32,000 nt of DNA from Candidatus Saccharimonadota bacterium (GTDB lineage: Bacteria; Bacteroidota; Bacteroidia; Flavobacteriales; Blattabacteriaceae). The notes under the pieces were generated by a model, which ran no database searches, was not told the DNA's origin, and saw only the letters and a program-made list of their open reading frames with translations. The translations under genes were made by a program, and so were the position numbers. The DNA lies in NCBI RefSeq assembly GCF_002243425.1, contig NZ_CP021172.1, positions 150,001 through 182,000 on the forward strand, in the 5' to 3' direction. Shown in pieces: positions 3,379 to 29,264 of this stretch. Each line of letters starts with the position of its first letter. Position 1 is the stretch's first letter.

Positions 3379-6087
3379 ATGGATAGATATTCTTTCCTAA
3401 ACACAATCAATCACCAACAAATAGAAATTTTATATAAAAAATACTTAGAAGATCCAGATTCAATAGAACATAGTTGGCGTGCTTTTTTTCAAGGATTTGA
3501 TTTCTATAAAGAAAAATATAATTACTTTTGTAAGTTTATAAAAAAATCAATAGATACTTTTAAAGAAATTAATGTTTTAAAATTAATTAATTTTTATAAA
3601 AAAGAAGGTCATTTATTTGCTAAAATAAATCCTATATCTGAAAAAAGATATTATCCGACATTAAATATAAACAATTTTTTTCTTGAGAAAGAGGATCTTG
3701 ATCAGATTTTTGTTTCTTCAAAAGAAATAGGATTGCCTCCATCTACTCTTAGAGAGATAATTTTTTTTTTAAAAAAAAAATATTGTGAATCAATTGGATT
3801 AGAATATATGTATTTATATAACCCAGAACAAATAAATTGGATTAATAACTGGATTAATAATAATAATATATTATATAATAATGAGAAATTTAAAATATTA
3901 ATAAATATAAATCAAGCAACAAAGTTTGAAAAATTTATTCATACTAAATTTGTTGGACAAAAAAGATTTTCAATAGAAGGTAATGAATCTATTTTACCAG
4001 CGATAAATTATATAATAGAATATTCTTCGATTAATTATTCTATCAAAGATTTTGTTATAGGTATGTCACATAGAGGACGTTTAAATATATTATGTAATAT
4101 ACTAAAAAAAAATTGTAAAAAAATTTTTAGTGAATTTTTTGGAAAAGAATATATTGAAAAAAAATTTTTAGGAGATGTTAAATATCATTTAGGAGATAAC
4201 ATTTATATAAAAAATAAAATAGGAAGAGAAATTCATATTATGAATGTTCCTAATTCATCTCATTTAGAATCTGTATATCCTATTGTAGAAGGAATTGTTC
4301 GTGCTAAAATTGATAATGATTATAATTGTAACTTGAATAAAGTTATTCCCATACTTATACATGGAGATGCAGCTTTTTCTGCTCAAGGAATAGTATATGA
4401 AGTTATACAAATGTCATTACTTGAAGGGTATAAGACTGGTGGAACTATACATATTATAGTAAATAATCAAATTGGATTTACTACAAATTGCTCAGATTCT
4501 CGTTCAAGTATTTATTGTACAGATTTAGCTAAAGTTATTCTTTCTCCAGTTATACATGTTAATTCAGATGATGTAGAATCAGTTATTTATTCTATTCGTT
4601 TTGCTATAGATTTTCGTATGTCATATAATCAAGATGTATTTGTAGATTTATTAGGTTATAGAAAATATGGACATAATGAAGGAGATGACCCCCGTTTTAC
4701 TCAATCAAATTTTTATAAAATTATTGATAATAATAAAAATATATATTTTATATATAAAAACAAACTTAAAAAAAATAAATTAATTTATAAAAATAAAATT
4801 AAATTTTATGAAAAAAAATATAAAAATTATCTCAATAATGGATTGATTAAATCTAAATTTGAAATAAAAACTAAGTTAGATAATTTTCTCATTTCTAAAG
4901 AAGAATTAAATTCTGCTAATTATAAAGTATTAATTAATGAAGTGAAAACTACTTTTAAGAAAAATATATTATTAAAAATAGGTAATAAAATTTATAATGT
5001 TCCTAAGAATAAAAAAATTTATAATAAAACTGTCAAATTTTTAAAAATAAAAAAAAAAAAACTTTTAAAAAAAGAAACTGTAGATTGGGGTATAGCTGAA
5101 TTACTTGCATATGGGTCTTTATTATATGAAGGTTATAATATTAGATTATCTGGAGAAGATGTAGAAAGAGGAACTTTTGCTCATAGACATATTGTCATTA
5201 TTTCAGAATTTGAAGAAAAGATATATTTATTAAATAATATCCGTAATGGACAAGGTCAATTATATGTTTATAATTCTTTATTATCAGAATATGGAGTTTT
5301 AGGTTTTGAATATGGATATTCAATGTTTAATACAAATACTTTAACATTATGGGAAGCTCAATTTGGTGATTTTAGTAATAATGCTCAAATTATAATAGAT
5401 CAATATTTATCTTCTGCAGAAACTAAATGGAAAATAAAAAATGGGATAGTTCTACTTTTACCTCATGGTGATGAAGGTCAAGGATCAGAACATTCTTCTT
5501 CAAGAATTGAAAGATATTTACAATTATGTGCAAACTATAACATGTTTATATGTAATTGTAGTACTCCATCAAATTTTTATCATCTTTTAAGAAGACAAAT
5601 AAAATTTTATTTTATAAAACCATTAATAATATTTACACCAAAAAGTTTATTGAGAAACATTCAATGTATTTCATTATTAAGTGAACTTTATAATGGAAAA
5701 TTTGAAGAATTTATAGATGATAAATATGTAATTAAAAATTATGTAGATACATTAGTATTTTGCTCTGGAAAAATTTATTATGATATTTTTAAAAAAAGAA
5801 AAATTCTTAATAAAAAAAATCTTGCAATTATAAGAATTGAACAATTATATCCAATAATAAATAATTTATTTGAAAAAATACTTATACAGTATACAAACAA
5901 AAGAAAAATTATTTGGGTACAAGAAGAACCAGAAAATATGGGAGTATGGCCTTATTTGTTTAGAAAATATAGTAAAATTCCATGGATCCTGATATCCCCC
6001 CCTGACAATTCAGCACCTTCTATTGGAAGAAATAATTTTTTTTTAAAAAACTATTTAAAATTAATAAATAAAGTTTTTAATACATAA
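3379..6087 (+). CDS. sucA: 2-oxoglutarate dehydrogenase E1 component
   Basis: 902 aa. The N-terminus [36 protein letters not shown] is typical of SucA. It also has the ThDP-region [10 protein letters not shown] and the [23 protein letters not shown] motif. Confidence 0.92.
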
Positions 6088-17150: not shown

Positions 17151-17218
17151 TACGTTTAATTTTAAACAAAAAATATTATATATACATATATAAATATGTA
17201 AATTTAAACATTATGAAT

Positions 17219-17233
17219 AAAAAAAAAAAAAAA
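17219..17233 (+). repeat. A15 homopolymer between an out-of-frame ATG (17213) and the infB reading frame
   Basis: I counted 15 consecutive A directly, from 17219 to 17233. Confidence 0.95.
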
Positions 17234-17322
17234 GATTTATATCTAGAAAAACAGATCTATCAACAGAAAACAAAAAAATAATTAAAGTTTTAGAATTTAC
17301 TACTGTTAATGAATTAGCATCA

Positions 17323-18999
17323 ATGATGAATATTAGTTCAATAAAAATTATAAAAAGTTGTATTTCATTAGGAATAATGGTAACTCGTAATCAACGATTA
17401 GATGCAGAAACTTTAACTTTAGTGGCAGATGAATTTGGTTATTCTGTAGAATTTGTTGGTACAGATTTAGAAAAAGCAATACAAGGAGAAAAAGATTTTG
17501 AAAAAGATCTTAAACCAAGATCTCCTGTTGTTACTATCATGGGGCACGTAGATCATGGAAAAACCTCTTTATTAGATTATATAAGAAAAACTAATATTAT
17601 AGCTGGAGAATGTGGAGGTATTACACAACATGTTGGAGCATATAATGTTAAATTTAAAAAAGGTAATAGTATTACTTTTTTAGATACGCCAGGTCATGAA
17701 GCATTTACTTCTATGAGAGCTAGAGGAACTAAAATAACAGATATAGTAGTTATAGTAATAGCTACAGATGATGATGTAATGCCTCAAACTAAAGAAGCTA
17801 TTAGCCATGCACAATTAGCTGGTGTACCTATAATATTTGCATTAAATAAAATTGATAAAATTAATTCAAACCCTGATAAAATACGAAGACAATTATCTGA
17901 TATGAATTTTTTATTAGAAGAATGGGGTGGAAAATATCAATCTCAAGAGATATCTGCTAAACTTGGTAAAGGAATAGATAAATTATTAGAAAAAATTTTC
18001 TTAGAAGCAGAAATTTTAAATTTAAAAGCGAATCCTAATAAACCTGCTGTGGGAACAGTAATAGAAGCTTTTTTAGATAAAGGGCGAGGGTATTGTTGGA
18101 CAATACTTATCCAAGGAGGAACTTTAAAGTTAGGAGATTATGTAGTAGCGGGTACTTTTCATGGAAAAGTAAAAGTTATTTTAGATGAAATAGGAAATAA
18201 TCTTAAAAAAGTATTACCTTCAAAACCTGTCAAAATTTTAGTATTAAATGGAGCTCCTAATTCTGGTGAAAGATTTAAAGTTTTTAAAAATGAAAAAGAA
18301 GCTAAACAATTAGCCTCAAGAATGAGTAAATTAAAAAAAGAACAGAATATACGTTCTAAAAAAACTATTACATTAGAGGAAATAGGAAGACGTATAGCAA
18401 TAGGAGATTTTAAAGAATTAAAATTAATAATTAAAGGAGATATGTATGGATCAGTAGAAGCTATAACAGATTCATTAGAAAAATTATCTACAGATACTAG
18501 AATAATTAATATTATATATAAAAACATTGGTTTGATAACAGAATCAGATGTTTTATTAGCAAAAGCGTCTAATGCAATTATTGTTGGTTTTAATGTTAAA
18601 TGCACATTAAAGGCTAAAATTATTGCCAATAAAAATAACTTAGAAATAAGATTATACAATATAATATATGATATAATAAATGACTTTAAAAAAGCATTAT
18701 ATGGAATGAATATAAAGGTAAAAAAAGTGACTGTAATAGGAAATGCTGAAATCATAAATTTCTTTAAAAGAAAGCAAATAGGAACTATTGCAGGATGTTT
18801 AATTATAAATGGAAAAATAATACGTAATTCTAAGATACGTTTAATTAGAGACGGAGTAGTTATTTATACTGGCGAATTAAATTCTTTAAAAAGATTTCAA
18901 GATGATGTAAAAGAAGTAAATAAAGGATATGAATGTGGAATAATTATTAAAGATTATAATGATTTTAAAATTGGAGATATAATTGAATGTTATATTTAA
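17323..18999 (+). CDS. infB: Translation initiation factor IF-2 (strongly N-terminally reduced; true start uncertain, see finding)
   Basis: IF2-N region ...SLGIMVTRNQRLDAETLTLVADEFGYSVEF, G domain GHVDHGKTSLLD / DTPGHEAF / NKID, and the C-terminal domains. 17323 is the first in-frame ATG, but the frame is open and looks conserved from 17221. Confidence 0.9.
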   Translation: MMNISSIKIIKSCISLGIMVTRNQRLDAETLTLVADEFGYSVEFVGTDLEKAIQGEKDFEKDLKPRSPVVTIMGHVDHGKTSLLDYIRKTNIIAGECGGITQHVGAYNVKFKKGNSITFLDTPGHEAFTSMRARGTKITDIVVIVIATDDDVMPQTKEAISHAQLAGVPIIFALNKIDKINSNPDKIRRQLSDMNFLLEEWGGKYQSQEISAKLGKGIDKLLEKIFLEAEILNLKANPNKPAVGTVIEAFLDKGRGYCWTILIQGGTLKLGDYVVAGTFHGKVKVILDEIGNNLKKVLPSKPVKILVLNGAPNSGERFKVFKNEKEAKQLASRMSKLKKEQNIRSKKTITLEEIGRRIAIGDFKELKLIIKGDMYGSVEAITDSLEKLSTDTRIINIIYKNIGLITESDVLLAKASNAIIVGFNVKCTLKAKIIANKNNLEIRLYNIIYDIINDFKKALYGMNIKVKKVTVIGNAEIINFFKRKQIGTIAGCLIINGKIIRNSKIRLIRDGVVIYTGELNSLKRFQDDVKEVNKGYECGIIIKDYNDFKIGDIIECYI

Positions 19000-20057
19000 T
19001 TATTAATAATTTTATTTTGTATATTTATTGATTCTTTATGAATTTCTTTAAATATATTTTCTATAAATTTTTCTGATAAACATAATTTATGTCCTAATAT
19101 TTTATACTCTTCTATTAAAGATTTCCATCTTTTAGGTTGAAAAACTAATAAATTGTTTATTTTTTTTATTATTGCTACTTTTTCAGATGATTCCATTCTC
19201 TCAGATAATAAATATATCAAATTTTGATCTAATTCAGATATAAGAACTCTTATATGTTCTAATTCAATTTCATTTTTATAATTGTTTTTTTTAAACAAAT
19301 CGTTTTTTAAAAATTCTAAAAATTGTTCCGGTATTATTTGTTGTTGAGAATCACTTAATGCTTTATCAGGATTACAATGTGTTTCTACTATGAATCCTTC
19401 ATATTTAAAACTCATTGCTTGTTTAATTACTTCAAATAAACATTCTCTATTTCCACAAATATGTGATGGATCACATAACATAGGTATATTTGGATATAAT
19501 TTTTTAAATTTTAATGCTAATCCCCAATTAGGTATATTACGATATTTTATACTTTTATAAGTGTAAAAACCACGATGGATAACTCCTATCTTTTTAATTC
19601 CTTGATTAATTAATCTTTCTAAAGCTCCAATCCATAAATCAATATCAGGATTTATAGGATTTTTAACTAATATAATTTTATTTGTATTTTTTAATGCTTC
19701 TGATATTTCTTGTACAGTAAATGGATTAACTGTACTTCTAGCTCCAATCCAGATTATATCTATATTATATTTTAATGCTAGTTCTACATGAGTGGAATTA
19801 GCAACTTCTGTTGCTGTTAAAAGACCTGTTTCTTTTTTTACTTTATTTAGCCATTTTAAACCAATCTGGCCTATACCTTCAAAAAAATTTGGTCTAGTTC
19901 TTGGTTTCCATATTCCTGCTCTAAAAACTTGTATATAATTTTTATCTAATTTTTTAGCTGTTTCTAGTACTTGATTTTCAGTTTCTGCACTACATGGACC
20001 TGATATAATCAGAGGCTTTTTAAAGCTATTTATCCAATTTTGTTCTATATTTTTCAT
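18996..20057 (-). CDS. aroG: Bifunctional 3-deoxy-7-phosphoheptulonate (DAHP) synthase, type I-beta / chorismate mutase
   Basis: The N-terminal ~260 aa are KDO8PS-like DAHPS (ISGPCSAE, RAGIWKPRTRP, IGARST, LCDPSH). The C-terminal ~90 aa are AroQ chorismate mutase-like (IRVLISELDQNLIYLLSERMESSEKVAIIKK). This architecture is typical of Bacteroidetes. Confidence 0.85.
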   Translation of the reverse strand: MKNIEQNWINSFKKPLIISGPCSAETENQVLETAKKLDKNYIQVFRAGIWKPRTRPNFFEGIGQIGLKWLNKVKKETGLLTATEVANSTHVELALKYNIDIIWIGARSTVNPFTVQEISEALKNTNKIILVKNPINPDIDLWIGALERLINQGIKKIGVIHRGFYTYKSIKYRNIPNWGLALKFKKLYPNIPMLCDPSHICGNRECLFEVIKQAMSFKYEGFIVETHCNPDKALSDSQQQIIPEQFLEFLKNDLFKKNNYKNEIELEHIRVLISELDQNLIYLLSERMESSEKVAIIKKINNLLVFQPKRWKSLIEEYKILGHKLCLSEKFIENIFKEIHKESINIQNKIINN

Positions 20058-21970: not shown

Positions 21971-22216
21971 CTAGTTAATTAATTTTACTAATTTACTTTT
22001 AATTCTATTAGATTTCTTTTTATGAATAATTTTTTTTTTTGCTAATTTATCTATCATAGATAATATCTTAGGAAAAGCATTTAAAACTTTTTTTTTTTTA
22101 TATTCTAATTTTAATTTCTTTATTGCTGTTTTAGTAGATTTTAAAAACAATTTATTTTGTAATCTTTTTAAATTGTTTTTACGTATTTGTTTTAAGGCGG
22201 ATTTAGTATTTGCCAT
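21971..22216 (-). CDS. rpsT: 30S ribosomal protein S20
   Basis: 81 aa, very basic. MANTKSALKQIRKN... is the S20 N-terminal signature. Confidence 0.85.
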   Translation of the reverse strand: MANTKSALKQIRKNNLKRLQNKLFLKSTKTAIKKLKLEYKKKKVLNAFPKILSMIDKLAKKKIIHKKKSNRIKSKLVKLIN

Positions 22217-22317: not shown

Positions 22318-23559
22318 TTATATTTTGTTTTTTTTAAAAAAAAAACCTAGAGATTTTAAATCAACCCAAAAATTAGGATAAGATTTAGATACTACATTAT
22401 AATTTAATATTGAGATAGGATATATAATCCCTAATGTAGAAAATGACATTGCCATCCTATGATCATCATAAGTAGAAATATAAATTTCTTTTTTTTTCAT
22501 TTCATTAAAATGAAGTAATTCTATACTAGAATTAGTTATAATACTTTTTACCCCTAATTTAGATAATTCATTTTTTAATGCATTTAATCTATCGGTTTCT
22601 TTAATTTTTAGAGTTTCTAATCCTCTTAAAACACATTTAATTTTTAATCCAGTACAAGTTACTACTATAGTTTGTGCTATATCTGGAGTTGAATTCAAAT
22701 CAATATCTATTGAATTCAAATCAATATCTATTAATTTTTTTAAATGAATTTCATTATTCTTAAATAAAGTTTTTACATTAAAAAAATGTTTATATATATT
22801 TGATATGATACTATCACCTTGAATATTTTTTTTATTAAAAAATTTTAAATTTAAATCAGCTGTTTTAGAAAGAGCTACTAAAGAATAATAATATGAAGCT
22901 GAACTCCAATCAGATTCTATTATTATTTTAATTTTTTTTTTAAATTTTATGTTTTTAATATAAATCATATTTTTATTCCACAATACATTTATTCCTAGTT
23001 TTTTTAAAACTTTCAATGTCATCTTAATATAAGAGATAGAAGTAATTTTATTTGATAAATATATTTTTAATCCATTTTCAAATTTTGATGCTATTAACAT
23101 AAGAGCACTTATATATTGACTACTTATATTTGCATCTATATTAATTTCCCCCCCTAATAATTTTTTACCTATTATTCTCAATGGAGGATATCCATTTTTT
23201 TTTTCATAAAAAATATTTCCTCCTAATTTTTTTATAGTTTCTACTAAAATAGAAATAGGTCTTTCTTGCATTCTATATGATCCAGTTAATATAACTTCTC
23301 TATTTTCTTTTATAGAAAAAAATGCTGTTAAAAATCGCATAGCAGTTCCAGAATGTTTTATGTTAATTAACTTTTTTTTAGAAAATAAAGCTTTTTTTAA
23401 GATAAAAGTATCGTCAGAATTTGAAATATTTTCTAACTCAATTATATCAGGATATAATGCTTTTAATATCAAAAATCTATTTGATTCACTTTTAGATCCA
23501 GTAATATTAACATTACCATTTATATCAAAATTATTTTTATATATTTTAATATAATACAT
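22318..23559 (-). CDS. aroA: 3-phosphoshikimate 1-carboxyvinyltransferase (EPSP synthase)
   Basis: 413 aa. Motifs KSESNR, SGTAMRFL, RMQERPI, KIKETDRL and DDHRMAMSF are present. It contains a 21-bp in-frame tandem duplication (see the repeat feature). Confidence 0.9.
   Translation of the reverse strand: MYYIKIYKNNFDINGNVNITGSKSESNRFLILKALYPDIIELENISNSDDTFILKKALFSKKKLINIKHSGTAMRFLTAFFSIKENREVILTGSYRMQERPISILVETIKKLGGNIFYEKKNGYPPLRIIGKKLLGGEINIDANISSQYISALMLIASKFENGLKIYLSNKITSISYIKMTLKVLKKLGINVLWNKNMIYIKNIKFKKKIKIIIESDWSSASYYYSLVALSKTADLNLKFFNKKNIQGDSIISNIYKHFFNVKTLFKNNEIHLKKLIDIDLNSIDIDLNSTPDIAQTIVVTCTGLKIKCVLRGLETLKIKETDRLNALKNELSKLGVKSIITNSSIELLHFNEMKKKEIYISTYDDHRMAMSFSTLGIIYPISILNYNVVSKSYPNFWVDLKSLGFFFKKNKI
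22690..22731. repeat. Perfect 21-bp x2 tandem duplication inside aroA (encodes IDIDLNS twice)
   Basis: tgaattcaaatcaatatctat occurs at 22690-22710 and again at 22711-22731. The protein reads ...LIDIDLNSIDIDLNSTPDIAQT.... Confidence 0.95.
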
Positions 23560-23570
23560 ATATAATTGAA

Positions 23571-23921
23571 TTAAATATTATGTAATATAATTTTTTTTTC
23601 TTTCCAAGCTTTTAATTTTTGCTCTATCTCTGATTTAGAAATATTTACTTTTTTTACTCCAGATAAAAGATATTTTTTATAATAAATTCCCTCTTTTAAA
23701 AAAAAAGATTTTACAGTACATGTAGGTTGTGCTCCTTTAATTAACCAATTAACTGCTTTATCAACATTAATTGATATAGTATATGGATTAGTGTTAGGAT
23801 TATAAAAACCAATTTTTTCTAGAAATTTTCCATTTCTAGGAGAACAAGAGTTAGAAACTACAATAGTATAAAAAGCTTTTTTTTTTCTACCTTTTCTTTG
23901 TAGCCGAATTTTTATTGACAT
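23571..23921 (-). CDS. rpsP: 30S ribosomal protein S16
   Basis: MSIKIRLQRKGRKKKAFYTIVV... is the S16 signature. I place the start at ATG 23921, because the track's 27-codon extension to 24002 runs through tRNA-Gln. Confidence 0.9.
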   Translation of the reverse strand: MSIKIRLQRKGRKKKAFYTIVVSNSCSPRNGKFLEKIGFYNPNTNPYTISINVDKAVNWLIKGAQPTCTVKSFFLKEGIYYKKYLLSGVKKVNISKSEIEQKLKAWKEKKIILHNI

Positions 23922-23945
23922 ATTTTTAAAAAAAAATTGATTTTG

Positions 23946-24016
23946 CAGACCCGTAGGGATTTGAACCCCAACTAACAGAACCAAAATCTGCTGTGCTACC
24001 ATTACACAACGAGTCT
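23946..24016 (-). tRNA. tRNA-Gln (anticodon UUG)
   Basis: The minus strand reads AGACTCG-TT-GTGTAATGGTAGCAC-A-GCAGA-TTTTGGT-TCTGT-TAGT-TGGGG-TTCAAAT-CCCTA-CGGGTCT-G. No CCA is encoded. Confidence 0.85.
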
Positions 24017-24028
24017 TACTTTGAATAA

Positions 24029-26002
24029 TTAATTATCTATCTTAGCAAAAAGAGCATTTGTTTCTATAAATTGTTTTCTAGGTAAAACATTTTCTCCCAT
24101 AAGCATAGAAAATATTTTATTGGCAATATTTATATTATGAATAGTTACTTTACGTAAAGTTCTCCTTATAGGATTCATAGTTGTTTCCCATAATTGTTCA
24201 GCATTCATTTCTCCTAACCCTTTATAACGTTGAATACTTATTCCTTTTAGGAAAGAATTTAATTTTAAAATTTTTTCTCTCTCTTTAGAAGTCCAGGCAT
24301 AAATTTTTTTTTTATAATTTTTTATTAAAAATAAAGGAGGTGTTGCTATATATATATATCCTTTTTCGATTAAAATTCTCATATATCTAAAGAAAAAAGT
24401 TAATACTAATGTAGATATATGGCTTCCATCTATATCAGCATCTGTCATAATTATTATTTTTTTATAACGTATTTTATTAATATTCAATTTTATTATATTT
24501 TTTTTTTTAAAAAAAAACACACCTAAAGCTAAAAAAATATTTTTTATTTCCTCATTTTCAAAAATTTTATTTTTAATTGATTTTTCAACATTTAAAATTT
24601 TACCCCTTAATGGCAATACAGCTTGAAATTTTCGTTCTCTTCCCTGTTTAGCTGTTCCACCTGCAGAATCACCTTCTACTAAATATAATTCACATAAATT
24701 AGGGTTTTTAGAAGAACAATCTGCTAATTTGATAGGTAAATTCTTTTTTTTTGAAGTTTTAATTAATTCACGAACCCTCTTATAAGCTTGACATGCTTTT
24801 GCAGATAAAAATACTTTATTTAAAATCTTTTTTAGATATAAAGGATTTTTTTCAAGAAAAGAATTAAATTTTGTTTTTACAATCTTTTCAACTAAACCAA
24901 TTATTTCATAATTTACAAGTTTGTTCTTAGTTTGTCCCTCAAATTTAGGATTAATAATTTTTATTGTTAATATTGCTGTAAGACCTTCTATAAAATATCC
25001 CCCCGAAATTTTTAATTTTTTAAACCTTCTATTTTTAGAAAAATATTTTTTAAAAGTTTTTGTTAATGCTTTTTTAAATCCAGATATATGAGTTCCTCCT
25101 TCAGAAGTCTTAATATTATTAACGTAAGAAAAAATTTTTTCTTTATAAGAAGAATTATATCTCATTACTAATTCTAAATTTAGTTTTTTTTTCTTTTTTT
25201 TTAGATAAAAAAAATCTTTTATTCTAGATTTTTTAGATTTATAATTTTCTATTATAGATTCTTTATTTTTTTCTATAAACATTAGAAATTCTTTTATACC
25301 TTTTTTTGAAAAAAAATGATTTTTTTTAAAAAATCCAGTTTTATAAATTTTTCTTTCATCTAATAAAGAAATTGATAATCCTTTATTAAGAAATGATAAT
25401 TCTCTTAATTTATTTTTTAAAATAGAATAATTATATGAAATGTTTTTAAATATCAATTTATCTGCTTTAAAAGTTATTTGAGTACCTCTTTGATTTTTAC
25501 TATCACCAATAATTTCTAGTTTAGAAATTGGTATTCCTCTCGAATATTTTTGTACATATATTTTTCCATTACGAAAAATCTTAGCAATAAGTTTACTTGA
25601 TAATGCATTTACGCAAGAAATTCCTACACCATGTAGACCTCCAGAAAATTTATAAGAATTATTATCAAATTTTCCTCCTGCTCCTATTTTAGTCATTACT
25701 AATTCAAGAGCTGATATTCCTTCTTTTTCATGTAATTCTACTGGAATTCCTCTTCCATTATCTAAAACAGTAATTGAGTTATCTTTATGTATTGTTACAT
25801 AGATTTTATCACAAAAACCAGATAAGGATTCATCTATTGAATTATTTATTACCTCATAAACCATATGATGTAATCCTTTAATTCCAATATCTCCAATATA
25901 CATTGATGGTCTTAATCTTACATGCTCAATTCCATCTAAAAATTTTATATTTTTAGAAGTATAATTCTCATTACTTTTTTTAATAGAATTATGTTTTTTC
26001 AT
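24029..26002 (-). CDS. gyrB: DNA gyrase subunit B
   Basis: 657 aa. GHKL ATPase motifs (HHMVYEVINNSIDE, GGLHGVG), the Toprim motifs EGDSAGG and MTDADIDGSHI, and PLRGKILNVE. Confidence 0.95.
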   Translation of the reverse strand: MKKHNSIKKSNENYTSKNIKFLDGIEHVRLRPSMYIGDIGIKGLHHMVYEVINNSIDESLSGFCDKIYVTIHKDNSITVLDNGRGIPVELHEKEGISALELVMTKIGAGGKFDNNSYKFSGGLHGVGISCVNALSSKLIAKIFRNGKIYVQKYSRGIPISKLEIIGDSKNQRGTQITFKADKLIFKNISYNYSILKNKLRELSFLNKGLSISLLDERKIYKTGFFKKNHFFSKKGIKEFLMFIEKNKESIIENYKSKKSRIKDFFYLKKKKKKLNLELVMRYNSSYKEKIFSYVNNIKTSEGGTHISGFKKALTKTFKKYFSKNRRFKKLKISGGYFIEGLTAILTIKIINPKFEGQTKNKLVNYEIIGLVEKIVKTKFNSFLEKNPLYLKKILNKVFLSAKACQAYKRVRELIKTSKKKNLPIKLADCSSKNPNLCELYLVEGDSAGGTAKQGRERKFQAVLPLRGKILNVEKSIKNKIFENEEIKNIFLALGVFFFKKKNIIKLNINKIRYKKIIIMTDADIDGSHISTLVLTFFFRYMRILIEKGYIYIATPPLFLIKNYKKKIYAWTSKEREKILKLNSFLKGISIQRYKGLGEMNAEQLWETTMNPIRRTLRKVTIHNINIANKIFSMLMGENVLPRKQFIETNALFAKIDN

Positions 26003-26016
26003 ATAATTTTTTTCTA

Positions 26017-26637
26017 TTAAATAATAGGAATATAAATAATTTTTTTTTTAAAAAAAAATTTTTCTTTAAAAATATTATATAGATTATAATCTATATATAG
26101 ATACTGATTATTCTTTTCATTTTCAAACTCCCCCCCTTTTAGATATAAAATACCATTATTAATTTGATTTTTAAATAAAAAATTTTTTTTAACTAATCTA
26201 ATAAAATTTGGCAATTTTGTAACTGCTCTTCCTATAATAAAATTACATTTCTTATGGAAATTTTCTATTCGTGTACATTTTACAGACACATTTTTTAAAT
26301 GTAATTCTTTAATTATTAAATTAATTATTTTAATTTTTTTCTCTATTGAATCAATTAATATAAATTTTGTTTTATTAAACAATAAAGCTAAAGGAATTCC
26401 AGGAAATCCACCTCCAGTACCAACATCAATAATAATTGATTTATTTAAAAAATAACAAATTTTATAAACACATAAAGAATGTAAAATATGTCTTTCATAA
26501 AAAAAATTTAAACTATTATTAGAAATAATATTTATTTTTTTATTAAAAAATTTATGAATTTTATATAATTTAATAAATTTTTTTATTATAGATTTATCTA
26601 ATTCAGGAAAATATTTATTAAATATTCTTTCTTTCAA
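26017..26637 (-). CDS. rsmG: 16S rRNA (guanine527-N7)-methyltransferase RsmG (GidB)
   Basis: 206 aa. SAM-binding IIDVGTGGGFPGIPLALLF and overall GidB length and organisation. Confidence 0.85.
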   Translation of the reverse strand: MKERIFNKYFPELDKSIIKKFIKLYKIHKFFNKKINIISNNSLNFFYERHILHSLCVYKICYFLNKSIIIDVGTGGGFPGIPLALLFNKTKFILIDSIEKKIKIINLIIKELHLKNVSVKCTRIENFHKKCNFIIGRAVTKLPNFIRLVKKNFLFKNQINNGILYLKGGEFENEKNNQYLYIDYNLYNIFKEKFFFKKKIIYIPII

Positions 26638-29157: not shown

Positions 29158-29264
29158 AAAAGAAAAATTTGGTTTTTTTTAAAAAAAAAACTATTTAAAA
29201 AAAAAACTATATTTTATTTATAGTATAATTAATCTTTAAAATATTGATTGTTAAGAGATTTGAA

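Follow-up and report, generated by a model that had tools for sequence, protein, structure and literature searches.

We analyzed the 5' end of infB, the gene for translation initiation factor 2 (IF-2), in a stretch of 32,000 nucleotides (nt) of insect symbiont DNA (positions 150,001 to 182,000 of contig NZ_CP021172.1), referred to below as the window. The source of the window is Candidatus (Karel)sulcia muelleri ENCA, and the IF-2 encoded in it is 100% identical to NCBI proteins of Karelsulcia (Sulcia) muelleri. The Sulcia-ENCA genome was obtained from the treehopper Entylia carinata and assembled with SPAdes from Illumina MiSeq 2x300 reads at 952x coverage (PMC5533117); the G+C content of the window is approximately 22%. 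The infB gene is annotated on the plus strand at 17323..18999, where the GenBank entry ASS46948.1 (558 amino acids, aa) begins at 17323 and the RefSeq entry WP_237985481.1 (557 aa) begins at 17326. Its open reading frame (ORF) has no stops across 1.7 kb, and Pfam finds GTP_EFTU, EF-G_D2, IF-2, GTP_EFTU_D2, and IF2_N, identifying the product as an IF-2. The infB frame continues 5' of its annotated start codon, where a run of 15 A residues parts it from its only upstream ATG, which is out of frame by one nucleotide. The same arrangement, with various tract lengths, recurs across Sulcia.

The 5' region of the gene reads ...cattATGAAT-A15-GATTTATATCTAG.... The infB frame is closed on its 5' side by a TAA (17218..17220, plus strand) that lies within ATGAATAAA, and it is open from 17221 onward, the translation of 17221-18999 being KKKKRFISRKTDLSTENKKIIKVLEFTTVNELASMMNISS.... 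According to the list of open reading frames, the first ATG, GTG, or TTG in this frame is located at 17323. The only ATG upstream of the ORF (17213..17215, plus strand), which is probably the true, ancestral infB start, is followed by AAT at 17216-17218 and then by the proposed slippage site, a homopolymer of 15 A residues (A15; 17219..17233, plus strand) that is the longest in the window. The distance between the two candidate starts (17323 - 17213 = 110, or 2 mod 3) leaves the tract one A short of frame fusion, so that one added nucleotide joins both frames. A transcript with 16 A residues (the A16 model) would encode a fused IF-2 of 595 aa in which the codon at 17323 corresponds to Met38; fused residue numbers below refer to this protein. 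Without frame correction, translation from 17213 would yield only the zero-frame short ORF MNKKKKKDLYLEKQIYQQKTKK* (17213..17281, plus strand), which has 22 codons and ends with a TAA at 17279-17281 that overlaps the ATA at 17278 and the ATT at 17281 of the infB frame. The tract is read as AAA lysine codons in both frames, five of them in the frame of ATG 17213, and thus contains overlapping slippery heptamers (A-AAA-AAA). Downstream of it, the infB frame encodes a variable Lys/Thr/Glu-rich linker, RFISRKTDLSTENKKI (17233..17280, plus strand), which is open in every strain having a linker, and then 14 conserved codons, IKVLEFTTVNELAS (17281..17322, plus strand), that form the start of the G1/IF2_N subdomain as judged from conservation and from the PF04760, TIGR00487, and 3jcj_f alignments. 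Between the tract and the P-loop codons of the window there are no stops in the infB frame, compared with 9 and 15 in the other two frames. This layout had been described previously in a reading of the sequence without database searches (the sequence-only reading), and the positions of the ATG, the A15 tract, the TAA, the open frame, and 17323, as well as the one-nucleotide offset, all proved correct.

Coding sequence upstream of the annotated start

Several comparisons show that the stretch preceding Met17323 is truly protein-coding. The Pfam IF2_N (PF04760) match extends over 17293..17442 on the plus strand (fused residues 28-77; E = 3.6e-13; profile positions 2-52 of 53) and thus begins 10 residues before Met17323. 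The TIGR00487 model covers fused residues 22-594, starting 16 residues before Met17323, with a score of 731 bits against a cut-off of 424.4. Similarly, the E. coli IF-2 (3jcj_f) aligns from fused residue 25, which is 13 residues before Met17323, and the Pseudomonas IF-2 (7uiu_x) from fused residue 24. In the multiple alignment, the Blattabacterium sequence KLLKVAEFTTVNELASMM corresponds to KIIKVLEFTTVNELASMM in the window, and the other flavobacterial IF-2 proteins in the alignment retain this motif. Both EFTTVNELASMM and EFTTVNELAS(MM) are identical between the window and Blattabacterium, and VLEFTTVNELAS is an example of an IF-2 peptide encoded upstream of 17323. The sequence-only reading had named such a flavobacterial motif, and suspected on that ground that initiation at 17323 would clip a conserved domain; the alignment that it proposed as a check bears out both points, with homology beginning 10-16 residues before Met17323.

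The DNA sequence is conserved as well. The segment of 45 nt that runs from ATT 17281 to ATG 17326 shows 93-100% identity to seven other Sulcia strains, including a CARI-like clade whose IF-2 protein is only 79% identical to that of the window, while in the 60 nt upstream of ATG 17213 identity falls to about 64% in distant clades. Conservation of the 14 upstream codons was gauged in this way, by DNA identity relative to flanking non-coding DNA, since 0-3 substitutions in 45 nt are unsuitable for dN/dS (the ratio of nonsynonymous to synonymous substitution rates). In addition, Met17323 is replaced by ATA in five of the eight strains compared (L081, L082, L084, L088, and L089). Given the conservation and the domain matches upstream, a start at 17323 or 17326 would deprive a conserved subdomain of its first strand and helix.

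The ATG and poly(A) arrangement across Sulcia

We compared 19 infB 5' regions of Sulcia, comprising the window and 18 loci from NCBI genomes, Logan assemblies of Sequence Read Archive (SRA) runs, and JGI metagenomes. These loci are not phylogenetically independent and represent approximately six clades. A scan of genome contigs with the whole IF-2 protein retrieved generic Bacteroidota (L001-L080), with no Sulcia among the matches listed. At the head of the infB frame, all 19 loci have an ATG and a tract of A12-A16, which either adjoins the ATG directly or is separated from it by AAT or AT. The gene is out of frame with this ATG in 14 of the 19 loci. One additional nucleotide is needed in 12 of them, namely in the window, L081, L088, L090, L091, and L092 (A15), L083 (A13), L084 and L089 (A16, in the context ATGAT-A16-TTAAAG), L085 and L086 (A14), and L087, which is CP008986 (A12). 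The removal of one nucleotide is needed in L082 and L099 (A14), which come from two different metagenomes. The remaining five loci are in frame; they include GWSS (CP000770) together with three further assemblies (L093-L096; A13) and L097 (ATG-A12). In these in-frame strains, a start at the shared ATG gives MNKKKKIIKVLE... or MKKKKVLEE.... Thus ATGAAT-An orthologues that need no correction do exist, and GWSS (A13, in frame) differs from CP008986 (A12, out of frame) by a single A between flanks that are the same on both sides. The possibility that ATG 17213 is a chance ATG was ruled out, as it is kept in 19/19 loci and serves as an in-frame start in the GWSS-type strains.

Despite the offset, the gene is intact. 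Stops are absent from the infB frame between the tract and the P-loop in every locus, whereas the other two frames contain 7-19 stops in the clades keeping IF2_N and 1-3 in the short versions from which IF2_N is deleted. The zero-frame peptides of the other out-of-frame strains range from 6 to 26 codons. The linker, 36-60 nt in length and strain-specific, is open in the infB frame, and its indels are multiples of 12. In the ENCA clade, A15 was found in 6/6 assemblies despite nearby single-nucleotide polymorphisms (AGA to ATA, ATA to CTA) and linker indels of 12 and 24 nt. The out-of-frame state therefore persists in about six clades with infB intact, and we dismissed the notion of infB as a decaying pseudogene, since no strain shows an interruption of the ORF over its 1.7 kb. 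The comparison of tract lengths in related strains, which had been recommended with the original observation, thus finds the out-of-frame state recurring in data from different laboratories and read sets.

Two local features of these regions were noted along with the comparison. The linker length varies through a 12-nt unit, ACAGAAAACAAA (Thr-Glu-Asn-Lys), that has one copy in L081 and in L088, two copies in L091, and three in L092; in the window and in L090, one ACAGAAAACAAA unit is replaced by another stretch of 12 nt, GATCTATCAACA (17254-17265). The repeat region corresponds to 17251-17274 in the window and to 1436-1447 in L081, and all of its length changes are frame-preserving for infB. 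In L086 (1127-1152), the order is ATG AAT AAA AAT A14, where an extra AAAAAT, as a 6-nt insertion, keeps both the ATG frame and the one-nucleotide offset.

The strains with 190-kb genomes bear on the choice among possible starts. In the infB frame, L085 and L086 read TAA-(AAA)4-GTT TTA GAA GAA AAA GAT CTT AAA CCA AGA TGT CCT GTT GTT ACT ATA ATG GGG CAC, and the part between the tract and ATG-GGG-CAC (the start of MGHVDHGKT) translates as KKKKVLEEKDLKPRCPVVTI. Between the tract and the P-loop ATG of these two loci there is no ATG, GTG, TTG, CTG, ATT, or ATC, and a single ATA adjoins the ATG. The segment PVVTI is strand beta1, which precedes the P-loop in the translational GTPase fold. A start at the MGHVDHGK ATG would remove this strand, although the ORF is intact and conserved in all of these genomes, and the 190-kb strains would therefore have to start at the upstream ATG and correct the frame. 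The simplest single explanation over all clades would be a start at the conserved ATG combined with frame restoration in the tract.

The public proteins are in line with this picture. The tract lies directly after the start codon, so that annotation pipelines flag no frameshift and silently call a shortened IF-2. In the window, the annotated protein loses 37 residues, including the start of the conserved subdomain. In the ENCA protein cluster, the eight members all start at MMNISS or MNISS unless they are partial. In the cluster with CARI and PSPU, 5/6 other sequences start at MNIN, and NJJ98710.1 (L089, 573 aa) was given an ATT start by the PGAP pipeline ('MKVVEF'). Twelve sequences from 190-kb genomes (cluster P0016; CP093906/CP093905 correspond to L085/L086) are annotated from MGHVDHGK, and the records with this start (the 190-kb P0016 and CP008986, which is L087, in cluster P0011) have lengths of 476 or 484 aa. 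These MGHVDHGK starts are almost certainly wrong and caused by the out-of-frame ATG and poly(A). For at least 12 190-kb genomes and CP008986, the annotated protein thus begins within the GTPase fold, and the records need re-annotation. An exact look-up of ten hypothetical frame-corrected fused proteins (n+1 or n-2) found none among about 15 billion catalogued proteins, which is a weak negative.

The G1/IF2_N subdomain, which the window keeps (17281-17500), is deleted outright in L093-L096 (GWSS), in L087 (CP008986), and in L085, L086, and L097 (190-kb). IF-2 proteins of this deleted type run from MNKKKKIIKVLEC..., MKKKKVLEE... or MNKKVLEE... directly into ...KDLKPR(S/C)PVVTIMGHVDHGKT. Here an essential factor is eroded at the level of domains within a single genus of symbionts.

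Probable frame restoration and competing explanations

We consider it probable that translation begins at ATG 17213 and that the frame is restored by RNA-polymerase slippage, by ribosomal -1 slippage, or by both. The frame offset, the conservation of the upstream codons, and the recurrence across Sulcia are observed; from these we infer slippage and the step responsible for it. In this model, the gene would be the functional infB of Sulcia-ENCA, with a 5' end that truly lies one nucleotide out of frame at the DNA level. A start at ATG 17213 (Met-Asn-Lys...) followed by correction in the tract would produce the 595-aa IF-2 (MNKKKKKRFISRK...IIKVLEFTTVNELASMMNISS...) with a complete G1/IF2_N subdomain, and this frame-corrected protein would contain RFISRKTDLSTENK. 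The most likely route would be slippage of RNA polymerase on the T15 template, giving some A16 transcripts. As a second route at the same site, tRNA-Lys could slip by -1 on the iterated A-AAA-AAA, where a one-nucleotide backward shift would suffice. Uncorrected events would yield only the 22-residue peptide, at small cost. Because the tract occupies codons 3-7 and failures cost peptides of 6-26 residues across strains, the lesion may be tolerated or persist.

Both routes have precedents. Bacterial RNA polymerase slips efficiently on runs of at least 9 A or T, and slippage mRNAs of Thermus thermophilus dnaX carry one or more extra A in diminishing proportion (PMC5009743). In poly(A)-frameshifted genes of Buchnera and Blochmannia, 12-50% of transcripts are frame-corrected (PMC5009743; PMC3017870), and ribosomes slip or slide on iterated AAA lysine codons (PMC4363877). 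The 'one A short' majority appears to fit insertion-biased polymerase slippage and equally -1 ribosomal shifting, the two being not separable here. We rejected a stimulated -1 programmed frameshift of the classical type as an explanation on its own, given that there is no structure 3' of the tract and that the downstream sequence is unconserved.

A number of points weigh against frame restoration. The fold of 17205-17330 (-7.2 kcal/mol, z = 0.23 versus shuffles) contains no stimulatory RNA structure after the tract, and the clades differ in the sequence that follows the tract. In the window strain, an in-frame ATT (17281) and ATA (17278) are found just before the conserved domain, and PGAP picked the ATT equivalent as the start in NJJ98710.1. 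The deletion of G1/IF2_N in the GWSS-type and 190-kb-type Sulcia implies that a clipped domain might be tolerated. Some symbionts can dispense with infB, which is missing from Sulcia-RANSCY and also from Nasuia-ALF, whose host upregulates its mitochondrial IF2; given these losses, the requirement for IF-2 dosage may be low. The 19 loci count as only about six clades. The tract itself is unlikely to have a chance origin, as approximately 0.01 runs of at least 15 A are expected in 32 kb from base composition (A = 0.381); the genome is, however, generally rich in long A/T runs. The window has 31 A/T runs of at least 10 nt, 28 of which are in frame within open ORFs. Among these long runs, only the A15 at 17219-17233 parts a start codon from its gene.

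Initiation at a non-canonical codon, AUU at 17281 or AUA at 17278, is possible but unlikely. Translation of infB would then perhaps be coupled to termination at UAA 17279-81 (A-UAA-UU), the end of the short ORF, and the poly(A) would be an unstructured A-rich leader. AUU is a known start codon in bacteria, as in infC. The survey of near-cognate starts found ATT in all clades keeping IF2_N, where ATT-AAA-GTT is conserved, and with a start there the Pfam domain would be kept in full. The overlap of the zero-frame stop with ATA/ATT in the window and the NCBI choice of the equivalent ATT in NJJ98710.1 ('MKVVEF') point the same way. However, the out-of-frame 190-kb L085 and L086 have no ATT, GTG, or TTG before the P-loop, and their only ATA adjoins the ATG. 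The stop/start overlap is not conserved either, since the zero-frame stop of the CARI-like clade lies 9 nt past the ATT. An AUU start is further opposed by a linker of 36-60 nt that stays open in the infB frame, with indels in multiples of 12, and by an ATG kept in 19/19 loci while the flanking intergenic DNA diverged.

It is quite unlikely, in our estimation, that the out-of-frame tract is not a tolerated lesion but a selected recoding site, kept 'one A short' throughout the radiation of Sulcia because the dosage of IF-2 is set or regulated by how efficiently slippage occurs. IF-2 synthesis may, for instance, be coupled to the supply of ATP or lysyl-tRNA, or may be held low in a slow-growing polyploid symbiont. 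Support for such a role would come from the '+1 needed' skew over A12, A13, A14, A15, and A16 and from a tract that is fixed at A15 in six strains of the ENCA clade although such tracts are mutable.

Use of the annotated start, ATG 17323 or 17326, is a doubtful alternative, in which IF-2 would lack the first strand and helix of a G1 subdomain already in the process of loss, and the upstream codons would be an undecayed relic. Both GenBank and RefSeq annotate the gene in this way, the subdomain is absent from the GWSS-type and 190-kb-type IF-2 and thus not essential in the genus, and Sulcia is very slow-evolving. Yet the 45 nt upstream are conserved as much as or more than the downstream ORF, compared with about 64% for intergenic DNA, and Met17323 is ATA in most of the strains compared (5/8). 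In the 190-kb strains and CP008986, moreover, use of the first ATG would remove beta1 of the G domain.

An error in homopolymer length, with a true genome of A16 (or A13) and an intact gene, is very improbable. No homopolymer in the window is longer than the A15 tract, longer runs are more prone to error, and homopolymer errors in AT-rich symbionts are a recognized problem (PMC13345377; PMC4758232). Against this stand the 952x MiSeq coverage (PMC5533117) and the agreement on A15 among six assemblies that come from separate SRA runs and are distinguished by nearby polymorphisms and indels. There is also no uniform under-calling, as A16 was called in L084 and L089 and the in-frame A13 in four GWSS assemblies, with which the Logan assemblies agree, and tracts as short as A12-A13 are out of frame too (L087, L083). 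The 15-billion-protein collection holds no in-frame version of these proteins, and 28 other runs of at least 10 nt in the window are in frame in open ORFs. The sequence-only reading had left slippage, a sequencing error, and another start side by side. Of these, slippage has been strengthened by the 14 of 19 out-of-frame loci, the six A15 assemblies, and the 190-kb strains, and an error has become unlikely, whereas the AUU start at 17281 keeps its standing as a rival in this strain.

The least probable explanation places the correction in the DNA, with replication slippage keeping a minority of A16 copies under an A15 consensus in the polyploid cells of Sulcia. The variants found within hosts of Karelsulcia are mostly rare indels of one base that affect homopolymers and short tandem repeats (PMC13345377), and tract length differs between close relatives (A12 versus A13; A12 versus A14), but A15 is fixed over six diverged ENCA-clade assemblies and the reported intrahost indel variants are rare; such correction is compatible with slippage at the RNA level and could contribute to the rescue.

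Related systems and further features of the window

The closest parallels to infB are the poly(A)-frameshifted genes of Buchnera and Blochmannia. Tamas et al. (2008, PNAS) and Wernegreen et al. (2010, MBE) reportedly described the rescue of these frameshifts by transcriptional slippage. The shared features are an AT-rich reduced endosymbiont genome, a one-nucleotide offset in a long A run, and an intact gene that is kept across lineages. All sequence-level features of this class were found at infB, including a tract of at least 9-10 nt (A15, two codons after the ATG), an offset located in the tract, an intact gene, and persistence. The class also includes genes for information processing, such as dnaX, dnaG, and pth in Blochmannia vafer (PMC3017870). 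In contrast to these gammaproteobacteria, Sulcia belongs to the Bacteroidota, and its tract is located at codons 3-7 directly after the start; the Sulcia offset recurs over clades with varied tracts (A12-A16). The position of the tract right after the start, by which the protein is shortened without being flagged, and the recurrence across Sulcia clades with different tract lengths are the distinctive aspects of this case.

Other systems show partial likeness. In Thermus thermophilus dnaX and in insertion sequence (IS) transposases, a homopolymer of at least 9 nt adds one or more A to the mRNA and gives rise to a trans-frame product (PMC5009743), as proposed here for infB; those genes make two useful products, whereas the unshifted product of Sulcia infB is a 22-residue peptide without obvious function. 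As in the -1 frameshift of E. coli dnaX (A-AAA-AAG/A) and in AAA sliding (PMC4363877), infB has several slippery heptamers and would need a shift in the usual -1 direction. Unlike the E. coli dnaX type, it has neither a conserved upstream Shine-Dalgarno-like element nor a downstream structured stimulator, and the post-tract sequence is clade-variable. E. coli infC, encoding IF-3, is likewise an initiation-factor gene and has an AUU start, while for infB an AUU start is only a rival reading and fails for the 190-kb strains. In the literature searched, we found no description of such slippage or of such a frameshift for Sulcia or for infB, and the ENCA genome paper is silent on it (PMC5533117).

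If frame restoration is true, a core translation factor of a symbiont that ranks among the oldest and best studied in insects would be made only via error-prone copying or decoding of a homopolymer. It would also extend the 'rescue by infidelity' of Buchnera and Blochmannia to the Bacteroidota and to lineages that co-diverged with their hosts. The host lineages with confirmed records are treehopper, sharpshooter, and aster leafhopper, to which spittlebugs are presumably to be added, going by the strain names CARI and PSPU. The infB locus offers a compact and testable case of slippage, and bacteriome RNA sequencing data of a suitable kind exist for Sulcia-ALF (PMC6294904), with ATGAAT-A14-GTTTTAG as the homologous site in strains of the Sulcia-ALF type.

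The next-longest homopolymers of the window are A13 at 5049-5061, in the ORF 3379..6087, and T12 at 22088-22099, in the minus-strand ORF 21971..22216; both are in frame. If RNA polymerase slips on A15, the genes with A13 (5049-5061) and T12 (22088-22099) should give some frameshifted transcripts as well. The window also contains adjoining T(n)A(n) tracts at 3761-3780, 22328-22345, 24498-24517, 26040-26058, and 29173-29190 (T10A10, T8A10, T11A9, T10A9, and T8A10, respectively), which are perfect or near-perfect AT palindromes, four within ORFs and one intergenic. At the 3' end of infB, the stop (18996-18999) overlaps by 4 nt the end of the convergent minus-strand ORF 18996..20057, which is the DAHP synthase/chorismate mutase gene according to synteny with related loci. 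Further downstream, a tRNA-Gln gene (23945-24016) overlaps the 5' end of the listed minus-strand ORF 23571..24002, and the true start of this gene is probably located further downstream than listed.

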